Source: Imperialibacter sp. (lineage in GTDB: Bacteria > Bacteroidota > Bacteroidia > Cytophagales > Cyclobacteriaceae). Taken from it: a stretch of DNA of 64,000 bases. Made by a program: the position numbers and the translations under genes. The number at the start of each line of letters is the position of its first letter. Positions within the stretch are counted from its first letter, which is position 1. The stretch spans positions 180,583-244,582 of the forward strand of contig NZ_JAVKCH010000036.1 of assembly GCF_040222815.1 (NCBI RefSeq), given 5' to 3'. Of the stretch, positions 2 through 28,748 are shown piece after piece. Under the pieces are notes generated by a model. The model made no database searches, was not told the origin of the DNA, and saw only the letters and a list, made by a program, of their open reading frames with translations.

Positions 2-424
2 GTGGGCGATTTGAAAACAGGAGAGAAGCTGGCCAGTGTGCAGGTGCTGGGCTGGGACAAAGGCCCAGTGCGTCGGCATGGTAATCCTGCTCATGGAATC
101 GCACTTACGCCTGATGAAAAAGAAATTTGGATCAGCGATGGCCACAATATGCGCATGCACATTTTTGATGGCAAGCCGCCTTATCAGCAGCTAACAACCA
201 TTCCGCTGAGCGACATGCCCGGCTGGATTACCTTTAGCGTCGACGGTAAATATGCCTATCCTTCCAGCGGAGAGGTGATAGATCCGGCAAAGAGAGCAGT
301 ACTGTATTTTCTGAAAGACGAAAATTACAACACTGTTTCAAGTGAGAAGATGGTGGAGATTTTTATGAAAGATGGCAAGGCCACCAAAGCCGGCGATCAG
401 TTTGGGCTTGGCAGGGCTTTGTAG
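2..424 (+). CDS. C-terminal part of a YVTN/YncE-type beta-propeller protein (5' end lies before the window)
   Basis: Open frame from the window edge; propeller-blade motifs HGIALTPDEKEIWISDG and WITFSVDGKYAYPS. Confidence 0.65.
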   Translation: MGDLKTGEKLASVQVLGWDKGPVRRHGNPAHGIALTPDEKEIWISDGHNMRMHIFDGKPPYQQLTTIPLSDMPGWITFSVDGKYAYPSSGEVIDPAKRAVLYFLKDENYNTVSSEKMVEIFMKDGKATKAGDQFGLGRAL

Positions 425-440
425 TCAGAGAAATAGCATG

Positions 441-464
441 AAAAAAGGCGTGTGAGACACGCCT
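441..464 (-). terminator. Rho-independent terminator after the TonB-dependent receptor gene
   Basis: AGGCGTGT-gag-ACACGCCT hairpin with an A-run on + (U-tract on -), between convergent genes. Confidence 0.7.
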
Positions 465-514
465 GAACTAAACCATTGTGGTGACGCCATGATTTCACAC
501 AACGCCACCAATTT

Positions 515-2926
515 CTAAAACTTATAACTGTAGCCCACTCTCACCACCTGGGTTTCGTAGTAGTCGGTAGCCAGGTACTTAAACCCATCGCCCTGAATTT
601 CCCGCTTTACTCTCATGGTATTGAGCAAATCGGTGGCGTTGGCATACAATTCGCCTCTTCCTTTCTGCATGGGTTTCTTTACACCCAAATCCAGTGAAAA
701 GCGGGTGCCAATGGTTCCCTGTGGGATGATGTCAGGGGCCAGGTAAGTGCCGCTTAGCTGAATATCCACTTGCTTTGCCAGGTGAAAGACGCTATTGAGC
801 TTTACGTTTCCTGAAAGGATTTCCTGCCGGGCAGCTGTGAACACGTTCACTTCAGGATAAAGGTTGGTTACCGTAAAGGCCTCGATGATGTTCTGGTAGC
901 CATTCACACTAAAGTTGATGGTGGCCCATTTGTCCAGGTTTTGAGAAAGCAGCACTTCAAAACCCGTATTGTAGCTTTTGCCGGCATTTTGAAAGATGTT
1001 GTAGATAAGTACGCTGCCCGGCACGATGCTTCCGATGCGGGTGATGGTGGCATCCATCTGCTTGTGGTAAACGGATGAGTACAAATAGCCCGTGTTCCAG
1101 CTGCCCTTGTGGCCAACCTCGTAGTTGGTTGTAAACTGTGGCCGAAGCCCCGGGTTACCCACTTTGATGATCTCTGCGTCGTCATACTTGGGGAAGATCC
1201 TGATGTCAACCTCGTTGGGCCTATCGACACGGCGATTGAAAAAGACCGACAGTTTGTTGTTGTCGTTGAGCTTGTAAGCCAGGCGCACGTTCGGGAACGG
1301 CTGGGTGTAGTTGTAGCCGCTGGTTTTGTATGTGGGGTGATCGGGATTCACCTTGTAGTCAATCTTCACATACTCCACCCGCACGCCGGCTTCCGCCTCA
1401 TACTTTTCATTTTCGAAGACATAGTTACCATACACGGCTGGAATTAGCTCTCCGTAATTTGCCCATCCACCTGCTGCCGAGTCGATGGGGGAGTTGAGCC
1501 CTGGAAAGAACTGCATGTTGGTGGGGATGGTTCGCCTGCGAAACTTAAGGCCTGTTTCGAAGCGACCGTACGCCAAAGGCTGTACATAGTCGAGGTTGAA
1601 ATCGGCCACATGCTCATCAGAAATGAGCTTGAAGGCATCCCTTCCAGTTGACTCCGGCAGAATATTGTCGAAGAAGTACTGCTCATTTTCCCGGTGGTAG
1701 GTGTAGTTAAAACCAATATTGAGCAAGCGACCTGGCTGCTTGTACTTGTGCTGGTAGGCAGCAGTAGCCATCACGGTTGTTTTTAGCTCATCCTCCAGGA
1801 ATTGCCACAGTCTGTAACGGTTGCTGAGGTCTCCTTCGAAAAATGGTTCGTCGCCACGATCAAGAATTTTCTCACTGCTGAAAAAGCCAGACACAGTGAG
1901 GCTATTGGCATCGTCGATACTCCAGTCCATGCCGGTTTTGCCTGAAAAGAGGTTGGTGTCTCTGTTGCGCTTTGTTTGGTTGTAGATCACCGTGCCATCG
2001 TCATAGGTCCTGGTGACGAATTCATTTTTATTGAGCGTATGGGTATAGAGGTTATCGGCTTGCAAAAAGGTGTTGACCTTGTTCTTTTTGTAGTTGAGAG
2101 ATAGTGAAGGGTTGATTTTGGGTGTTGCCTGGTATTGAGGCCGAATGGTGGGCAGGTTCTCATTTTTGACCCAAAGCGCTCCCAGGCCTGATGAAAGCCC
2201 GACTTTTCCGTTGAAGCCTTCCTGCTTGTCTTTTTTGTAAATGATGTTGATAATGCCCGCATTGCCATTGGCGTCATATTTGGCAGATGGATTGTTAATG
2301 ACTTCAATTTTCTCGATGGCAGAAGCTGGCAAGTTGTCAAGTCCAGATTGCGAGCCGAAACCTGTTAGGGCAGTCTGCTTGCCATCAATCAGCACTGCGA
2401 CCCGGTCATTGCCTCTCAGCAGTACCTTACCGTCTTGCACGGTTACTCCCGGCAGGTTTTGCATGGCCTGGAGCACCGAGCCACCCGCCTGGCTAACGTT
2501 GTCGGCTACAGTGAAGGTCTTTTTGTCTAGCGATTCACTGACTGCGTCCTGTTGACCGGTGACAACCACTTCGCTCAACGTTTCTATGTCTTCATCCAAA
2601 ATGACGGGCGCTACCTCTAAAAACCTGCTTAGGCTACCCACAAACAGTGGTTGTTTTAAGGGTTTAAAGCCAACATAAGAGGCTTCCAGTACATACTTTC
2701 CTGGTTTCACACCGGTGAGTACAAATAGCCCCTCGTCGTTGGTGATGGTGCCTGACACAAACGCACTATCTGCCTCAGTTTTCAGCACGACGCTAACATA
2801 AGCCAGTCCCGATTGTGCTTTGTTGTCTTTTACTGATCCTGAGACTGTGATGGCACTGTTTTGGGCTGATATTACCAAAGGCACTAGAAATAGGATACTC
2901 AGAATAAATTTTGTGATTTGATTCAT
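515..2926 (-). CDS. TonB-dependent receptor / outer-membrane beta-barrel protein with N-terminal carboxypeptidase-regulatory-like domain
   Basis: Signal peptide; ITVSGSVKD...GKYVLEASYVGF; plug motifs LQNLPGVTV and IEKIEVINNPSAKYDANG; C-terminal YSYKF. Confidence 0.9.
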   Translation of the reverse strand: MNQITKFILSILFLVPLVISAQNSAITVSGSVKDNKAQSGLAYVSVVLKTEADSAFVSGTITNDEGLFVLTGVKPGKYVLEASYVGFKPLKQPLFVGSLSRFLEVAPVILDEDIETLSEVVVTGQQDAVSESLDKKTFTVADNVSQAGGSVLQAMQNLPGVTVQDGKVLLRGNDRVAVLIDGKQTALTGFGSQSGLDNLPASAIEKIEVINNPSAKYDANGNAGIINIIYKKDKQEGFNGKVGLSSGLGALWVKNENLPTIRPQYQATPKINPSLSLNYKKNKVNTFLQADNLYTHTLNKNEFVTRTYDDGTVIYNQTKRNRDTNLFSGKTGMDWSIDDANSLTVSGFFSSEKILDRGDEPFFEGDLSNRYRLWQFLEDELKTTVMATAAYQHKYKQPGRLLNIGFNYTYHRENEQYFFDNILPESTGRDAFKLISDEHVADFNLDYVQPLAYGRFETGLKFRRRTIPTNMQFFPGLNSPIDSAAGGWANYGELIPAVYGNYVFENEKYEAEAGVRVEYVKIDYKVNPDHPTYKTSGYNYTQPFPNVRLAYKLNDNNKLSVFFNRRVDRPNEVDIRIFPKYDDAEIIKVGNPGLRPQFTTNYEVGHKGSWNTGYLYSSVYHKQMDATITRIGSIVPGSVLIYNIFQNAGKSYNTGFEVLLSQNLDKWATINFSVNGYQNIIEAFTVTNLYPEVNVFTAARQEILSGNVKLNSVFHLAKQVDIQLSGTYLAPDIIPQGTIGTRFSLDLGVKKPMQKGRGELYANATDLLNTMRVKREIQGDGFKYLATDYYETQVVRVGYSYKF

Positions 2927-3218
2927 TTTACTACCGAACGGTTTCTTTCAATTACGTATCGCAACATACCAAAGATGTTTTCTGACAGTTCTTGCTCGTT
3001 TCTAATATTTAGAACATTCATTGATGCAAGGTAGCCACTGAATTCTGAATAAACTTTGAAGACTTCCTTTGTGTTCGCAAGGAGTTAGAAGGAACAAAAG
3101 GGTATGAGTTCCGGCAGGAAGCTCAGGTGGCCGCAAAAGGCCAGTCGTGGGAGATGAAAAATGATTATAGGAGAGTCAGCAGAGTAACCAACCCATAACC
3201 TCACAAATTGAACTTTAA

Positions 3219-4016
3219 CTAAGGCATCATTTTTAGCTGAGTCAGAATTTGCTTCGTAATCGTCTTTCTGCAACTTCCGAAATTTGGGTTCGGTACCTTC
3301 CTGTCTTTTATCAACCTGGTGGCAAAGAAATAGACATTGTGTTCCTTTTCAATGTACCCAACCCACCAGCCAGTATCTTTTCCGCTGTCACGGGTCCAGC
3401 CAGTTTTGGCTCGCAATATGTAGCCTTCGTTTTGCTCTTCTATCATCATCTCTTTCAGGATGGTAAAAGAGCGTTTGGAGAATGGCAGAGTCTCTTCGTA
3501 CACTCCAATGAGGATTTCTATTTGATTGGCTGGCGAAATGGCAAACGAACCAAAGTTCCAGAAGTCAGGGTCGTTGATGGAAACATCGGCATTGCCATAG
3601 TGGCTGGCTTTTAGAAAGTGCGCATAGCGCTCTTTGCCGATTTCCTTTGCCATTTCCACATAGGCCCATCCGGCAGAAAGCCGAAAGGCTTCTTTCATAG
3701 TCATGTCATGGTAAATGTCAGGCCGGTAGCCATACTTCACCGTGTCGGTGGTTCCCGGCCATTTTATCACTTGATTTTCATCTTTTGCTACACCGGTTTC
3801 CAGCGCTATCAGGGTGTTGATGATTTTGAAAGTGGAGGCTGGCAAAGTAGCTACATGGCTATCGTTGATGTCGCTGGAAATCCATTTTTTGGCGTTGTAA
3901 TCGAAGAGGGTGATGCTGCCTTCGATGTTACACTCTCTAAATGGTTTTGTGAGGGATTCTTGCGCCGGTAGATGATAAAAAAGAAGAACTGCGGCTGCCA
4001 GAAAAGTAATTTTCAT
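3219..4016 (-). CDS. Class D (OXA-like) serine beta-lactamase / penicillin-binding transpeptidase-fold protein
   Basis: Signal peptide; PASTFKI (SxxK), YGN, FW-x-x-G and AKTGW motifs; the SxV position reads SAG. Confidence 0.85.
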   Translation of the reverse strand: MKITFLAAAVLLFYHLPAQESLTKPFRECNIEGSITLFDYNAKKWISSDINDSHVATLPASTFKIINTLIALETGVAKDENQVIKWPGTTDTVKYGYRPDIYHDMTMKEAFRLSAGWAYVEMAKEIGKERYAHFLKASHYGNADVSINDPDFWNFGSFAISPANQIEILIGVYEETLPFSKRSFTILKEMMIEEQNEGYILRAKTGWTRDSGKDTGWWVGYIEKEHNVYFFATRLIKDRKVPNPNFGSCRKTITKQILTQLKMMP

Positions 4017-23576: not shown

Positions 23577-23742
23577 GGGCGTGCCCCCCGCCAGCCATAT
23601 TCCGTTTGAATAGAACAGACACCGTTTGGCGGGGGTCGGGCTATCCGCTCCAAGTCCTCGGCCGCCCCCGATAGCCCCGATAGCCCCGATAGCTATCGGG
23701 GGGGGGTCGTCCTGTGGGCTTTCCGCTGCTATCCCTCACGCA
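23577..23742. repeat. REP/MITE-like intergenic element carrying tandem CCCCGATAG copies
   Basis: GGGCGTGCCCCCCGCC...GGCGGGGGTCGGGCTATCCGCT...GGGCTTTCCGCTGCTATCCCTCACGC; 3 x CCCCGATAG at 23666-23692 followed by its complement CTATCGGGG. Confidence 0.7.
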
Positions 23743-24007
23743 AAGCCGTTATTTGGTTGACCAGCCAGGCCGTCGATCTGCCATTGACTCCATAACAGCG
23801 TCATTTCAATCCGCCAGCTAGCGGAGAGCCGACGTGGAACGGGATTCCCGTGAACTTGCAGTGCCTGCTAATGACTCGCTGCCATCATCACGCAAATCAG
23901 CCTGGGGAATGTGCCTTTGACTCAATACTGCTTAGAGAATTTTCAAGCGACTGCCTTATGTAGCTTGAAGAACCCTCCTAAATATTATTTTTTGAAATAA
24001 ATACTCG

Positions 24008-24049
24008 ATATTCAATGAATATATAATGCGAATATAGACCGGTCTATAT
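24008..24049. promoter_or_regulatory. Two adjacent palindromes, putative operator sites
   Basis: ATATTCA-A-TGAATAT (24008-24022) and the perfect 18-mer ATATAGACCGGTCTATAT (24032-24049), 23 nt before ATG 24073. Confidence 0.55.
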
Positions 24050-24072
24050 CCGGATGATATGCCAGAATCTGC

Positions 24073-24504
24073 ATGACGAAAAACTTCTTGACGGCAATAA
24101 TCTTGACTTTAGTACTGACTCCTGCCTTGTTGGCTCAGAAAATAACTGTAGCTGAATCCGTCGACCAGGAGATCAATTCGCTGCTTCTGTCGATTAGAAA
24201 TACTATGCAGTTTGGTGGTGACCGAGTAGCTATTCGACTTGTGGAAAGTGCCTACATAACAACGGACGAGGTAGCTGGTCTCGATGGCGACGTAGTTGTT
24301 CACAGACTTCTCATTTCTATCCAGCAAATGGACGATCAAGAAAAGACGACTCATAAAAGTTACTGGGTAGACGGCAACTTCTTCAATCCTCGGACATATA
24401 AGTTTGACACTGCTACTAAACGGCTAACTTTTCTACATGGGGTAGACGAACAGCCTAAATCAACGAATTTGGTGATCACAGCGACTGGACTACATACGGA
24501 ATAG
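24073..24504 (+). CDS. Hypothetical secreted protein (first ORF of the cassette-like array)
   Basis: Signal peptide MTKNFLTAIILTLVLTPALLA; no family recognised. Confidence 0.7.
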   Translation: MTKNFLTAIILTLVLTPALLAQKITVAESVDQEINSLLLSIRNTMQFGGDRVAIRLVESAYITTDEVAGLDGDVVVHRLLISIQQMDDQEKTTHKSYWVDGNFFNPRTYKFDTATKRLTFLHGVDEQPKSTNLVITATGLHTE

Positions 24505-24533
24505 AAATGTATGCAAAACTAAAACATATTTGA

Positions 24534-24938
24534 ATGAGCTGGGACTTATTTGTGCAAGACTGGGGTACTGCTAAGACACTTGACGACACTCCAGATGATT
24601 TCCAACCGCAGCCAATTGGAAGGCGTTCGACCATCATCGAGCAAATTCAGGCAGTTGAGCCTTCGGCGAACTTTACTGATCAGTCTTGGGGAACTATCGA
24701 AAACGATCAGTTCTCAATTGAGTTTAACATGGGAGAAGACGAGGTTCTAGGCTCTTTTGCTTTGCATGTTCGGGGCAACGAACTTGCCATTCCTTGCATT
24801 GGAAACATCTTAAAACACTTAGGGCTTAGAGCAGCAGATGGTTCCAACGGCGAATTTTTTGACAATGACACGGCAACTGAGAAAATGCAGGCATGGATGG
24901 AGTTTCGAGACCGAATCACTGGGAAGAAAGGCATATAA
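24534..24938 (+). CDS. Hypothetical acidic protein, cassette-borne
   Basis: 134-aa ORF MSWDLFVQD...; its TAA lies inside the R'' box GCATATAAC. Confidence 0.75.
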   Translation: MSWDLFVQDWGTAKTLDDTPDDFQPQPIGRRSTIIEQIQAVEPSANFTDQSWGTIENDQFSIEFNMGEDEVLGSFALHVRGNELAIPCIGNILKHLGLRAADGSNGEFFDNDTATEKMQAWMEFRDRITGKKGI

Positions 24939-25094
24939 CACAAAGCTAAGACATCATGGGGCCTCACCTGCAAGGAAATGGCGGTGGGGATTGCAGTCCC
25001 CGCCACTTTGTGTATTTTTATTCATCGGCGTGGCTATTTGCGGACGGTGACGGATTCTCTTACCAATCCCCACGCTGCTTAGCTGAGCGTACAC
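24931..25094 (+). repeat. attC-like site A
   Basis: R'' GCATATAAC; arm GCTAAG(A)CATCATGGGG pairs with CCCCACGCTGCTTAGC; R' reduced to GTACAC; core ccgccac...ggcgtggcta shared with sites B and C. Confidence 0.7.
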
Positions 25095-25103
25095 AATGCA
25101 GGA

Positions 25104-25733
25104 ATGGCAATAAAGCACCTCTTACTTTTGTTCTTGTGGGCTTTCGGAAGGACTGCTTTCTGCCAGTGCCCAGAGTTTGAAAATATCGAAGATCAAGCGG
25201 CTTACCTGACCAAGCTTCGAGAAGAGTACCCAACTGCCTCTGAGACAAGAAAGCTTTCAATTGAATCAGAATTCTTCTGTGCCTTTCCGGCCTCATTTGC
25301 TGACATGGAGCGACTTTTCGGATTTGACATGAAAACAGGTGTGGCAGCCCCTCTTTATGAGTTTCCCGCAGGTATGGAGACGATTCTGTTTTTCTCAAAC
25401 CTAAAGAGCATTGAACCTTCGCAGTATTATAACAGGTATATCGACATCAACATTGACGGATACTGGCAGGCAGACAACATCGGTGGTGCCTTTGTGCTTG
25501 GTAAAAGGTTTCGTGACGACCCTGACCAATTCTGCAAGCAACTGGCAAAACGGACAGACGACGAACTTCTGAGCGTGTTTAGATTCATGTACGACGGACC
25601 CCATCCAGATCAAATGAAAGAGGGCTTCGTTGAATTTCATTCCGACTTATCCTCCAAGAACAAACGACTAGGCCAGCTTCTTCAGATTGCCTACGCTAAA
25701 CTTCTGGCTGACCATGACGGGCACGGCAAATGA
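25104..25733 (+). CDS. Hypothetical secreted or lipoprotein, cassette-borne
   Basis: 209-aa ORF with an N-terminal hydrophobic signal; lies between sites A and B. Confidence 0.75.
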   Translation: MAIKHLLLLFLWAFGRTAFCQCPEFENIEDQAAYLTKLREEYPTASETRKLSIESEFFCAFPASFADMERLFGFDMKTGVAAPLYEFPAGMETILFFSNLKSIEPSQYYNRYIDINIDGYWQADNIGGAFVLGKRFRDDPDQFCKQLAKRTDDELLSVFRFMYDGPHPDQMKEGFVEFHSDLSSKNKRLGQLLQIAYAKLLADHDGHGK

Positions 25734-25737
25734 AAAA

Positions 25738-25904
25738 GTGTATAACACAGCGGTAAAAATGAATGTGGGCTGTTCAGGTAAGCTGAGTGTGGCTGGCTTG
25801 GATTGTCCGCCACAAAAGTTAATTTTAAATTTGGCGTGGCTAAGATGTGTTGGAAGCGGAGCTGCTTTAAACTCCCCCACTCATTTTAGGCAGACGTTAC
25901 CAGC
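25738..25904 (+). repeat. attC-like site B (intact GTT core)
   Basis: R'' GTGTATAAC; TAAA(A)ATGA pairs with TCATTTTA with one extra base; R' GTTACCAGC at 25896-25904. Confidence 0.8.
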
Positions 25905-25921
25905 AATTGTCTACATGACGC

Positions 25922-27445
25922 ATGACAATCTCCAAGGGATTTCTACAGAAACGTACGGTATTCAGCACTAGCCTACTCTCAAGCGGGACGATTCTTTGGA
26001 TTATCTTCTCCTATATTCTCTATGCTTTTTTCTTCTTAAGTCGTGAGATTTTTAGGTTTCTCACTGCCGATTTTGGAGATCAAGTATTGCTCGTACTGGA
26101 CAAAAACGAAACCTTCATCTACAATCTCTTTTGTTCATCTCTGGCAGTTGCAATTGGTTATGGACTGGCACTGAGGTTTGTGCTTCAAAACTCAGTGACT
26201 GGACAGTCAGCAAAAGCACGGTTTTTGATGCGGAGGACACTGAATGAGCAAGACTTCTTTACTTGGGCATTCTTATCCTGGTTTAGTAGAATTACAAGCA
26301 TATTGGGGATTTGTTATATTGCTTTCCCAATTCAATACGACGTTTATTTCCTTGATGAGTTCCCTTTTCTTCTAACCCTTCTTCCAATTGTTGTATTCTT
26401 TACCACGTGGCCAAAACTAGCTCTAATCACAAAGGGCTACAGGCTCAAATGGACGGCGATATCTTTAGGTATTTTTGCGACAATGAGCTTTGGATTTGCC
26501 TTTAAGAGTTTTCTAGCCAGCGAAAAAATCAACAAAATACTTCTCAAGAAATCTATCGAATACACTTATGGCTTGACGGTTCCAAGAAGTCAAACGCAAC
26601 AGTTGTTACAACGTAGATCCCTAACGACAAATGTCTACATTGTTCGGGATACGATTGACCCATTTCAACCGATAATCTTCATCAACAATGTCTACACTCA
26701 AACTGGGTTGGATAGTATTGACATTAAACTAAACATCGAACGGGACAAGCTATCATGGATTGAGAGTTCTCAAATGGCTATCAATCTGCACATAGACGAA
26801 AATATCCCAATGACGTTCGTTGAAGAACTCAAGTATCGGTTCAGACAAGACAGCCTAAGGATAATCCAGTATTCGACCGGACAAAAACACTCAAAGTATC
26901 CACCAAACTATCCACAATGGAAGTATTCAGGAATTCAACAAAACCTTTATCCTAGACACTATCCAAAGTTTGTGAGCTTTCTGGATTCGGCAGAGCATCT
27001 TGATTTTGATAAGTACACGATTCGATTGCCAGAATCTATGATGTATAGGGTCAATGCCCTTAAAGAATATAATCGCATTGAAGTTTATGTTGGCAAGGAC
27101 GACGTAATGGTAAATGGGGCAACAGTAACAGATAGCAAGCTTGCCGAGATTGTTTACAAATTCACCAAAAAGTATTCTCCTGACAACGTCATCATATTTA
27201 ACAAAGACAATCAAATCACCTTTGGTCGGTATATCGAATACCTTGATTTGGTATACAGCCAAATAGAGAATCTAAAAAACGAAATGTCGTTGGAACTCTA
27301 TCAACGACCGTTGGAATATTGGTACTGGCAGCCTGAGCTGGAGAGTATAAAATCCAAATATCCACGAAATGTCTTAGAATGGACTCGGGAGGAGCAGCGA
27401 CTGTTAGACTTGATGAAAAAAGCTGGTAACACAACAGTAAAGTGA
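25922..27445 (+). CDS. Multi-pass membrane protein with C-terminal ExbD/TolR-like domain(s), cassette-borne
   Basis: About seven TM helices, then INLHIDENIPMTFVEELK and IEVYVGKDDVMVNG...IIFNKDNQITFGRYIEYLD; the ORF runs into R'' of site C. Confidence 0.7.
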   Translation: MTISKGFLQKRTVFSTSLLSSGTILWIIFSYILYAFFFLSREIFRFLTADFGDQVLLVLDKNETFIYNLFCSSLAVAIGYGLALRFVLQNSVTGQSAKARFLMRRTLNEQDFFTWAFLSWFSRITSILGICYIAFPIQYDVYFLDEFPFLLTLLPIVVFFTTWPKLALITKGYRLKWTAISLGIFATMSFGFAFKSFLASEKINKILLKKSIEYTYGLTVPRSQTQQLLQRRSLTTNVYIVRDTIDPFQPIIFINNVYTQTGLDSIDIKLNIERDKLSWIESSQMAINLHIDENIPMTFVEELKYRFRQDSLRIIQYSTGQKHSKYPPNYPQWKYSGIQQNLYPRHYPKFVSFLDSAEHLDFDKYTIRLPESMMYRVNALKEYNRIEVYVGKDDVMVNGATVTDSKLAEIVYKFTKKYSPDNVIIFNKDNQITFGRYIEYLDLVYSQIENLKNEMSLELYQRPLEYWYWQPELESIKSKYPRNVLEWTREEQRLLDLMKKAGNTTVK

Positions 27446-27618
27446 ATGTGGGCTTCGGTGGATGTCATAGGGCAGTTGGCTTGGATTGCCCGCCACAATT
27501 TATAATTTTAACATCGCCTAACCTTCGCTAAAGCTACGGCTAGCAAAGCGTGGCTAAGTGCCAGTGGAAGCGGAGCTGCATAAAACTCCCACACTCACTT
27601 TAGGCAGGCGATATCAGC
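27422..27618 (+). repeat. attC-like site C (carries a 30-bp insert; R' core mutated)
   Basis: R'' GCTGGTAAC; TAAAGTGAATGTGGG pairs with CCCACACTCACTTTA; R' GATATCAGC; aligns with site B apart from the insert containing CCTTCGCTAAAGCTACGG. Confidence 0.8.
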
Positions 27619-27633
27619 AAAGTAACTTGACGA

Positions 27634-28260
27634 ATGGCAGTTGATGAAACAAGGCAATCATTTGAGGACAAGTGCCGGACTTACCAAAAGTGGTTGATGC
27701 AAATTAACTCCAGACGATTTGCAAAGCCCGTAACGATAGTTTGGATAACCGACCTCAGTGACAATGACACCGACAAACTTATACTAAACAACTTCAAAAA
27801 AGTTGTTGCAGCTTTTGACTCTAGACAATTACTCACGTACTTAAACAGGCACAAGCACTTATTGCCAGACCCGATAAACACCATAACTTGGGTGACTTAG
27901 GTTGAGAGTCTGGACGATCTTTCTGCAATAAGCTATGACATCTGTTCCATTGAGGCCTCGCTGGACGTTAATGGCTTCACTAAAGCTTCAATTACCGAAT
28001 CAATCAACTTCATTAACCTGTTTAACGACCTCGCTATTCAGCTAGCAGATGATGAGTTGCTGGCATTGTCTAGCAAGCAGGAGGTAAGAGACCTTTGGGA
28101 GTTTGGATACAACGAGATATTCTGGAAGGAATTTGGCAAAAACGAAGAATTGGCCTCGGTAAGAATTCCACAGCTTTCGATTGACCACGAGGCTCTGTCT
28201 TCAGCTTTAAATCAAATGATAGATGCATTTACCGATCGACTGGAAGTTCTGGATGGCTAA
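27634..28260 (+). pseudogene. Cassette ORF interrupted by a single in-frame TAG
   Basis: ORFs 27634-27900 and 28057-28260 share a frame; I translated 27901-28056 and found no further stop (VESLDDLSAISYDIC...). Confidence 0.75.
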
Positions 28261-28267
28261 GTAAAAA

Positions 28268-28283
28268 GCTGATAACACAAGGC
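28268..28283 (+). repeat. R'' arm of a degenerate attC-like site D
   Basis: GCTGATAAC-ACAAG 7 nt after the stop codon; near-complement of GATATCAGC at the start of the same cassette. Confidence 0.6.
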
Positions 28284-28560
28284 TTCCATGAATAATCGTT
28301 TTGAGCAGCGGCCTGGTTGAAGGTAGCAACTGTTTCCGAAACGTCAAAGATCAATAGGCTGCCCGCCCGGGATGAAAGCAAATCACAAATAGGCGAGCAA
28401 GGGAATGAAAGTTATGGGTGTTGTTTATCTATGATACTATCGGCCTGTAGCTTTATCGCTGTTTCAAAGCGAATCAACCAGCTCCATTTATCTCTCAAAA
28501 CCCCAAAAAATCAAACAACTCCTTTGAGTCATTCGTCAGCAGCACCTTTTGTTTGTCCAC

Positions 28561-28748
28561 TCGCCCAACCTCCACTATACCTATCGCCCAATAGCGGCTG
28601 GGGGTGCAGGGCGACTTCGGCTCCCCGGTTGGGCAAGGGCGGCGGCGGTGTTGCCCAATGTCGGCGGCGGTGTTGCCCAACCCAGGTAGACGAGGTTGCG
28701 CAATACCTGTAGCCGATGTTGCGCAATGCAGGAGTAAGGATTGCCCAA
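28561..28748. repeat. Phased array of TTG(C/G)(C/G)CAA-like octamers
   Basis: Octamers at 28561, 28584, 28607, 28629, 28651, 28673, 28696, 28719 and 28741 (22-23-bp spacing). Confidence 0.75.

Follow-up and report, generated by a model that had tools for sequence, protein, structure and literature searches.

An integron-like gene cassette array that probably occupies a recombinase-less attachment site in Imperialibacter

Results

Co-oriented genes and long structured sites form a compact array

The 64,000-nucleotide stretch of the Imperialibacter sp. contig NZ_JAVKCH010000036.1 analyzed here (the window, whose numbering is used unless another contig or locus is named) contains a short run of genes and long repeated sites that is probably the cassette array of an integron-like capture system. 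Five open reading frames (ORFs) of 143, 134, 209, 507, and 208 amino acids all lie in the same direction on the plus strand between positions 24073 and 28260, and the GC content of the array region is 39–47%, versus 53–56% in both flanks. An earlier reading of the DNA letters by a model (the original prediction) had reported these five ORFs, the AT-rich composition, and four boxes of the R'' type, and we recovered all of them at the positions given there. The boxes form the left ends of the sites and read GCATATAAC (24931–39), GTGTATAAC (25738–46), GCTGGTAAC (27422–30), and GCTGATAAC (28268–76).

Four cassettes can be delimited, all on the plus strand. Cassette 1 (24057–25089) holds the ORFs at 24073–24504 (143 amino acids) and 24534–24938 (134 amino acids) and closes with the attC-like site A (24930–25095; nhmmer E = 8.6e-30), which belongs to a diverged subfamily and is 93% identical to the site at C48:134005–134158 (C with a number denotes a contig of this genome). 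The cassette opens with ATATGCC, lacking the TT, and this sequence is the reverse complement of the GGCATAT that precedes AAC in the same cassette. Its start at 24057 (G/ATATGCC, where the slash marks the crossover point and the TT has been lost) is the exact end of homology with strain L074. The original prediction had placed a further boundary at GTATGC before the second ORF, which is probably a coincidence, as ORF1 and ORF2 constitute a single cassette from 24057 onward.

Cassette 2 (25090–25896) comprises the ORF at 25104–25733 (209 amino acids) and site B (25737–25904; nhmmer E = 2.3e-35), whose right core, G/TTACCAGC, is intact and whose right box complements the GCTGGTAAC box of site C exactly. 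Cassette 3 (25897–27610) is bounded by TTACCAGC and GCTGGTAAC and encodes a 507-amino acid membrane protein (25922–27445), the ORF for which continues through the left box into site C (27421–27618; nhmmer E = 1.7e-39). This site carries a 30-nucleotide insertion, a 15-nucleotide stem formed by TAAAGTGAATGTGGG and CCCACACTCACTTTA, and the right core G/ATATCAGC, in which a T has changed to A. Cassette 4 (27611–28300) has ATATCAGC as its first bases and GCTGATAAC as its end box. It consists of ORF5 (27634–28260), which is broken by an in-frame TAG at 27898–27900, and a truncated site D (28267 to ~28300), which retains only the first ~35 nucleotides of a site and resembles the family solely in AAAAGCTGATAACACAAGGCTTCCATGAATA. 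The original prediction held that the sequence ahead of an ORF complements the box downstream of the same ORF, and this is exact for GTTACCAGC with GCTGGTAAC and holds at 8/9 positions for GATATCAGC with GCTGATAAC.

Searches of the window's cassette ORFs against Pfam, NCBIfam, and PADLOC gave no match except a weak SLATT-like one for the 507-amino acid protein of cassette 3 (E = 0.0012), and exact look-ups of the cassette proteins returned the same strain only, or nothing. We also observed an identical box pair, T-to-A change included (GCG/ATATCAGCAA and AAGCTGATAACACAAG), in the window (27600–27621 and 28262–28280) and on C22 (420470–420500 and 421625–421640), where it frames unrelated cassettes. 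Reuse of box pairs by different cassettes or a swap of gene content inside a cassette frame would account for this. The idea that the C22 unit is a paralogue of cassette 4 was rejected because the two have nothing in common beyond the boxes.

The array lies at an attachment site that lacks a recombinase gene

Cassette 1 directly follows an orphan attI-like site, ATAATGCGAATATAGACCGGTCTATATCCGGATG (24023–24056, plus strand), in which the crossover falls after the G at 24056 and which holds the 18-nucleotide palindrome ATATAGACCGGTCTATAT. In the genome (6.7 Mb in 57 contigs, 99.9% complete), this motif recurs only once, immediately behind the stop codon of a recombinase gene on C27, where it reads ATAATGGGTATATGGACCGGGGCCATACCCATATG/TTATCTTC. 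A metagenome scan for the motif returned a single chance match on an unrelated GC-rich contig. No tyrosine recombinase is encoded on the window's 266-kb contig, and tblastn found no degraded recombinase gene upstream of the window's attI-like site. The lack of a nearby integrase noted in the original prediction therefore extends to the whole contig; an attI-like site is nevertheless present.

Related strains, whose loci are designated by L and a number, differ at precisely this point. The flank of the window is 95% identical to that of L074/L078 up to 24059, where homology ends. L074 has the same attI-like site, with compensatory changes in its arms (ATAG and CTAT against ATGG and CCAT), after which come G/TTACAGTGC and a distinct array. 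This L074/L078 array has 18 or more co-oriented genes and 11 or more sites, and its first cassette extends from G/TTACAGTGC to GCACTGTAAC. It shares no gene with the window except cassette 2, which recurs whole at L078:12807–13678 with 87% identity and at a much later array position. Homology with another strain, L075 (GCA_040219105.1), breaks off at 23807 and picks up again at 28491, such that the array is contained in a strain-variable region (23807–28490). L075 has no array at this spot but carries an MmeI-type restriction-modification gene (1245 amino acids) and an opposite-strand ORF of 179 amino acids (L075:11195–15468), which suggests that the position is a general hot spot for variable genes.

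A similar picture is obtained at a second type of locus, represented by C48 in this genome. Four strains (this genome, L009, L010, and L011) have recombinases there that are 92–100% identical and an attI that is identical up to its terminal CACAGTTG, after which four different first cassettes begin (TTAGCGGTC, TTAAGTTCG, TTACCCTCA, and TTAGAGCTA). Each of these has a matching end box wherever the contig extends to the far end. These comparisons, in which different cassettes stand at the same point, rule out that the relatives carry the same genes in the same order without the repeats.

Cassette boundaries follow the G/TT rule throughout the genome

By using blastn and iterated nhmmer searches, we located 46 copies of the site in the genome, of which 36 are full length. 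The copies are clustered in arrays on contigs C49, C50, C48, C18, C22, C55, C27, and others, with a median spacing of 702 nucleotides, and many contigs terminate within a copy. Members of the main family are 155–197 nucleotides long and share a conserved, non-hairpin interior of ~95 nucleotides. Their consensus is AAAG-N5-YAACAC..GGT-AAAAATGAATGTGGGCTTC, the interior TGGCTTGGATTGTCCGCCACAAA.TATAATTTTATCATCGGCGTGGCTAAG..GGAAGCGGAGCTGCATAAAACTCC, and then CACACTCATTTTA..GAGGCG/TTR-N5-CA. Further families of 115–126 nucleotides in this genome obey the same logic, and Rfam contains no family that matches the site. Four copies (C18_183979, C18_187002, C40_90812, and C48_134155) end in GAGG/TT rather than GAGGCG/TT and are 2 nucleotides shorter, with G/TT kept.

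If circular units are cut and joined at G/TT, then the bases that follow the G belong to the next unit and should pair with its distal box. This cassette signature was assessed by comparing the T and six nucleotides after the G of one site with the reverse complement of the six nucleotides and A that precede the AC of other sites. Complementarity at all seven positions was found for 15 of 23 adjacent pairs, for 14 of 1312 non-adjacent pairs, and for 0 of 34 sites compared with themselves. On contig C49, five successive junctions are perfect across 9–10 nucleotides, and signatures bounded by G/TT were also seen in L074, L024, and L010. The longest ORF is oriented towards the site in 37 of 38 cassettes. 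Hence, the boundary pattern that the original prediction had described for the window holds genome-wide, at a rate well above chance.

The same rule exposes the state of the window array. Where the first junction, between the attI-like site and cassette 1, should read G/TTATATGCC, the TT is lost to give G/ATATGCC. At the junction from A to B, 3 nucleotides are lost from the expected G/TTATACAC, leaving G/TACAC (the right core of site A is GCG/TACAC). The junction from B to C is G/TTACCAGC, both expected and observed, and the junction from C to D has G/ATATCAGC in place of G/TTATCAGC owing to the T-to-A change. Thus 3/4 of the G/TT cores of the window array are mutated, with every lesion at the two T's of the presumed cleavage point, and roughly 5/33 cores are damaged in the rest of the genome. 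Given these mutated cores, together with the stop codon in ORF5 and the truncation of site D, the array looks largely immobilized and fossil-like.

Array-linked recombinases lack the IntI-specific insertion

The original prediction had proposed searching for tyrosine recombinases beside such arrays, and two were found in this genome. One is encoded at C48:461020–461985 (321 amino acids) and the other at C27:62454–63584 (376 amino acids). Both are Xer/IntI-like, and each gene lies immediately upstream of an array and is co-oriented with its cassettes. An insertion point for cassettes is present, as expected of attI, but it is located 3' of the recombinase gene and in the same orientation, unlike the canonical position. 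The best model for both proteins is NF040815 ('tyrosine recombinase/integron integrase', XerA-like), with 215 and 230 bits. They are also the genome's two best partial matches to the IntI model TIGR02249, which gives them 205–208 bits while skipping model positions 180–240, and nothing in the genome exceeds its cut-off of 265 bits. Among solved structures, XerA ranks first (121 bits), followed by VchIntIA (112 bits) and XerD (74 bits). When aligned to VchIntIA (2A3V), the recombinases have 23 residues in the stretch where IntI has 66, and we conclude from this that the IntI-specific insertion is absent from both. The catalytic motifs GLRISE, AKGKKDR, HTLRHSFATH, and GH..EIYTH are visible in the C48 protein, and the recombinase of this genome is 98–99% identical to those of named Imperialibacter assemblies.

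Two further features of these loci were observed. The C27 recombinase has ~110 extra N-terminal residues (C27:62454–62780) that are not in the C48 enzyme and have no family match. In addition, a conserved zinc-ribbon protein of ~130 amino acids (N-terminal CxxC...CxxxC) is encoded just upstream of the recombinase, in divergent orientation, at 10/65 homologue loci. In this genome, its ORF lies on the minus strand (C48:460569–460982 and C27:61983–62369), and it is found also at L009–L013, L017, L018, L027, L043, and L062. This protein has no family match and may be an accessory factor or a regulator.

Homologues of the recombinase adjoin cassette chains in other Bacteroidota

A scan for homologues of the C48 recombinase yielded 65 loci, of which 61 were tabulated. 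In 18 of these the contig ends less than 1.2 kb past the gene, leaving 43. The loci belong mostly to Flavobacteriales, Cytophagales, Chitinophagales, and Sphingobacteriales. We scored a first-cassette link when a GTTRN5 word no more than 300 nucleotides from the stop codon had its exact reverse complement 200–4000 nucleotides downstream. Such a link is present at 16 of the 43 loci, compared with 70 of 980 random positions in the same loci. At these 16 loci, which come from different genera, the crossover point falls 47–270 nucleotides past the recombinase stop codon.

Chains of three to seven links occur at 13 loci, and site length is constant within each genome (for example 126–130, 158, 165, or 186–197 nucleotides). 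The sites of L024, for instance, are 190 nucleotides long and differ in sequence but follow the same logic. Note that a control using other trinucleotides was not independent of the sites for the chain test, and that constant site length and the random-position control were used instead.

Pairing is confined to the outer parts of the site

To examine structure, we aligned sites of this genome and three relatives (31 distinct sequences), and RNAalifold predicts an outer stem from this alignment. The structure used for counting was specified by hand and consists of a 4-bp AAC/GTT helix, an 18-pair stem, and two invariant inner helices. Paired cells amount to 90%, versus 80.8% in shuffles and 37–44% in slid controls, and 11 pairs are altered on both sides. 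The covariation score is 0.234, versus 0.077 in shuffles, and was reached by 0 of 500 of these. The left arm of the stem has one bulged base, and one A:C mismatch (T:G on the bottom strand) is invariant in all 31 sites. Over all stem cells, A:C outnumbers G:T by 56 to 19, the sole indirect hint at recombination of a folded bottom strand. The extra unpaired base in the left arm and the conversion of A:C mismatches to G:T pairs on the bottom strand, both described in the original prediction, are therefore real. That account had also portrayed the sites as long inverted repeats with a common core; sites A, B, and C are indeed homologous and their core is conserved, but only the outer 25–30 nucleotides of each arm pair. 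The notion of a continuous hairpin of 160–190 bp was dropped, and the outer stem alone was tested, because whole-site folding of site C was no better than in shuffles and the energies of 34 sites did not favor the bottom strand.

Other features near the array

Just past the truncated site D lies a solitary variant repeat of the CRISPR (clustered regularly interspaced short palindromic repeats) kind, 60 nucleotides long (28329–28388, plus strand), which equals a 47-nucleotide repeat into which a GC-rich hairpin has been inserted. The terminal repeats of a type II-C array (C39:55270–56590), which are variants of 60 nucleotides (C39:56270–56589), match it with 98% identity, and this array adjoins cas9 (C39:49506–53888) and cas1. 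The solitary repeat is probably not part of the cassette system and could be a relic or the source of a CRISPR-interfering RNA.

On the other side, GATAGCCCC repeats and a hairpin lie between the left flank gene and the variable region and are overlain by a match to the Rfam RNA motif Flavo-1 that stays below threshold (23630–23746, minus strand; 28.2 bits against a gathering score of 42, E = 0.007). Just right of the variable region (28561–28748) are the palindromic octamers TTGGGCAA/TTGCCCAA and TTGCGCAA, which recur at a spacing of ~22 nucleotides.

Discussion

We consider that window positions 24057–28300 most likely represent a four-cassette array of an integron-like capture system with a recombinase that lacks the I2 insertion of IntI, situated at an attachment site without a recombinase gene, and we assign this reading a probability of about 0.72. 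It supports the proposal of a CALIN-like Bacteroidota array (CALIN, a cluster of attC sites that has no integron integrase) with long sites and a recombinase encoded elsewhere, and refines it in that the array begins at an attI-like site. A cassette of this system consists of one or two promoter-less-looking genes and ends in a site of 115–197 nucleotides. The site starts with N6-YAAC and a brief spacer that is unpaired, continues with a ~17-bp stem that has one bulge and one conserved A:C mismatch and with a conserved interior, and finishes with (C)G/TTR-N6; cassettes would be cut and joined at G/TT. We take the site to function, like attC, in a folded single-stranded form, because the attI and attC sites have only G/TTR in common and because boxes more than 100 nucleotides apart stay complementary. 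The enzyme would be a Xer/IntI-like tyrosine recombinase without the I2 insertion, such as those encoded on C27 and C48. Since a copy of the C27-type attachment site without a recombinase gene stands at the head of the window array, the array would have been loaded in trans, presumably by the C27-type enzyme. Regarding the wider proposition that I2-less Xer/IntI-like recombinases carry out integron-type capture and shuffling via folded attC-like sites across the Bacteroidota and load orphan sites in trans, we lean only slightly in its favor.

Several observations weigh against this interpretation. The whole-site folding energy of site C is not better than that of shuffled sequences on either strand (z = −0.74 and +0.19), and among 34 sites the energies do not favor the bottom strand, with the top strand folding slightly better. 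Furthermore, conservation of the interior is far above what a loop would need. Because the interior is conserved as sequence, it would have to serve some other purpose, which points to an additional function. The assignment of the recombinase to the arrays depends solely on adjacency, and the right-hand boundary of the array and site D are poorly delimited.

The main rival explanation accepts the cassettes as real but has them exchanged in double-stranded form, through two-strand exchange of the Xer type at a short core, with no part played by a folded strand. This would suit a recombinase that is Xer-like and lacks the I2 helix, a helix that has been tied to single-strand recombination (PMC7790495). 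The conservation of GGCGTT to the left of the crossover is likewise in keeping with it. However, no palindromic core of the 11-6-11 type is visible in the aligned sites, and complementary boxes 115–190 nucleotides apart, together with a covarying stem, would have no role in such a reaction. Two-strand exchange uses an overlap of 6–8 bp, for which the G/TTR common to attI and attC is too short. Moreover, the modules all have the same orientation, unlike dif modules. We therefore regard double-strand exchange as unlikely.

The cassettes of the array might alternatively be moved by a different enzyme encoded elsewhere, with the adjacent Xer-like recombinase having another role. The adjacency-based assignment leaves room for this, as does the conserved zinc-ribbon ORF that accompanies some recombinase genes. 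Nevertheless, the crossover lies within 47–270 nucleotides of the recombinase stop codon at all 16 linked loci in different genera, and the attI sequence is conserved along with its recombinase across strains, which makes another enzyme quite improbable.

The locus could also be a canonical integron remnant, that is, a CALIN with ordinary attC sites derived from the action of a true IntI integrase. The AAC and GTT boxes, the G/TT boundary, the bulged hairpin, the co-oriented ORFs, and the lack of a nearby integrase would all fit. In conflict with this possibility, the IntI cut-off is not reached by any protein of the 99.9%-complete genome, the recombinases linked to arrays are devoid of the IntI insertion, and their genes are co-oriented with the arrays and have attI 3' of the stop codon. 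The usual length of attC is 57–141 nucleotides, which the main site family exceeds. We give this explanation very little credence. Least credible of all, ordinary intergenic repeats (REP- or MITE-like elements, i.e. repetitive extragenic palindromes or miniature inverted-repeat transposable elements, or terminator or 3'-untranslated region RNA structures) between genes that are not mobile would be multicopy, intergenic, structured, and conserved in their interior, with stem covariation that would suit an RNA element, but would leave unexplained the cassette-wise complementarity of the boxes, the presence of different gene sets in related strains at a single fixed point, the recurrence of one cassette at different array positions, and the linkage to recombinase genes across genera, and no Rfam match exists.

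Among known systems, sedentary chromosomal integrons such as the Vibrio cholerae superintegron, with its attC sites of ~125 nucleotides (VCR, V. cholerae repeats), are alike in many respects. They have long co-oriented arrays of cassettes mostly of unknown function, species-specific and near-uniform structured sites with AAC and GTT boxes, a G/TT crossover, and an attI beside the recombinase gene; their cassette content varies between strains, and assemblies break at the repeats. The Imperialibacter system differs from them in its XerA-like recombinase without the I2 helix, in the co-orientation of this gene with the array and the placement of attI just 3' of the stop codon, in its main sites of 155–197 nucleotides with a conserved interior of ~95 nucleotides, and in the phylum, Bacteroidota. 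Integrons of the 'inverted-integrase' kind (Treponema denticola type) also have the integrase transcribed in the cassette direction, but they retain the IntI insertion that is absent here.

The window array itself resembles a CALIN in having no recombinase gene on its 266-kb contig, few cassettes (three full sites and one truncated), and signs of decay. Unlike a CALIN, it begins at an attI-like site, and would thus be a second loading platform, not merely a detached piece of an array. Its sites have AAC and GTT boxes, a covarying stem, one bulged base, and one conserved mismatch, and they depart from canonical attC, as far as the two were compared, in length and in their non-hairpin interior. 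The Xer-dependent dif modules of Acinetobacter plasmids and the integrative mobile elements exploiting Xer (IMEX) rely on the host XerC/D and on double-stranded dif-like sites of 28 bp whose orientation alternates. They are similar in that a Xer-family recombinase is tied to small mobile modules of genes, but the sites described here are long, presumably folded, and in one orientation, and a dedicated recombinase adjoins the C27 and C48 arrays. The closest solved relative of this recombinase is archaeal XerA (PDB 4A8E and 5HXY; 121 bits), which, however, resolves chromosome dimers at dif.

We found no description of such arrays in Bacteroidota in the searchable literature. Smyshlyaev et al. 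2021 (PMC8138268) call the IntI insertion 'not fully conserved' within an integron-like subgroup of tyrosine recombinases, and they describe no cassette arrays for the members that lack it. The IntegronFinder 2.0 survey (PMC9024848) lists for Bacteroidetes only In0 elements and one complete integron (Salinibacter), and Escudero et al. (PMC7790495) tie single-strand recombination to the acquisition of I2, with intermediates lacking. A widespread I2-less cassette system with the full sequence logic of integrons bears on both the view of I2 origin and these surveys. If our interpretation is correct, the near-empty state of the Bacteroidota in integron surveys would be explained, and the I2-less system would represent a stage of integron evolution that precedes I2 and has survived, or else an invention made independently.

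The window locus adds to this that an attachment site can be present and receive cassettes even where its recombinase gene is lacking, and that lesions which immobilize cassettes hit the two T's at the presumed cleavage point. More broadly, the system would imply that an entire branch escapes integron-finding tools and that environmental Bacteroidota hold a large, unseen pool of mobile cassettes. It would also open the origin of integrons to testing.

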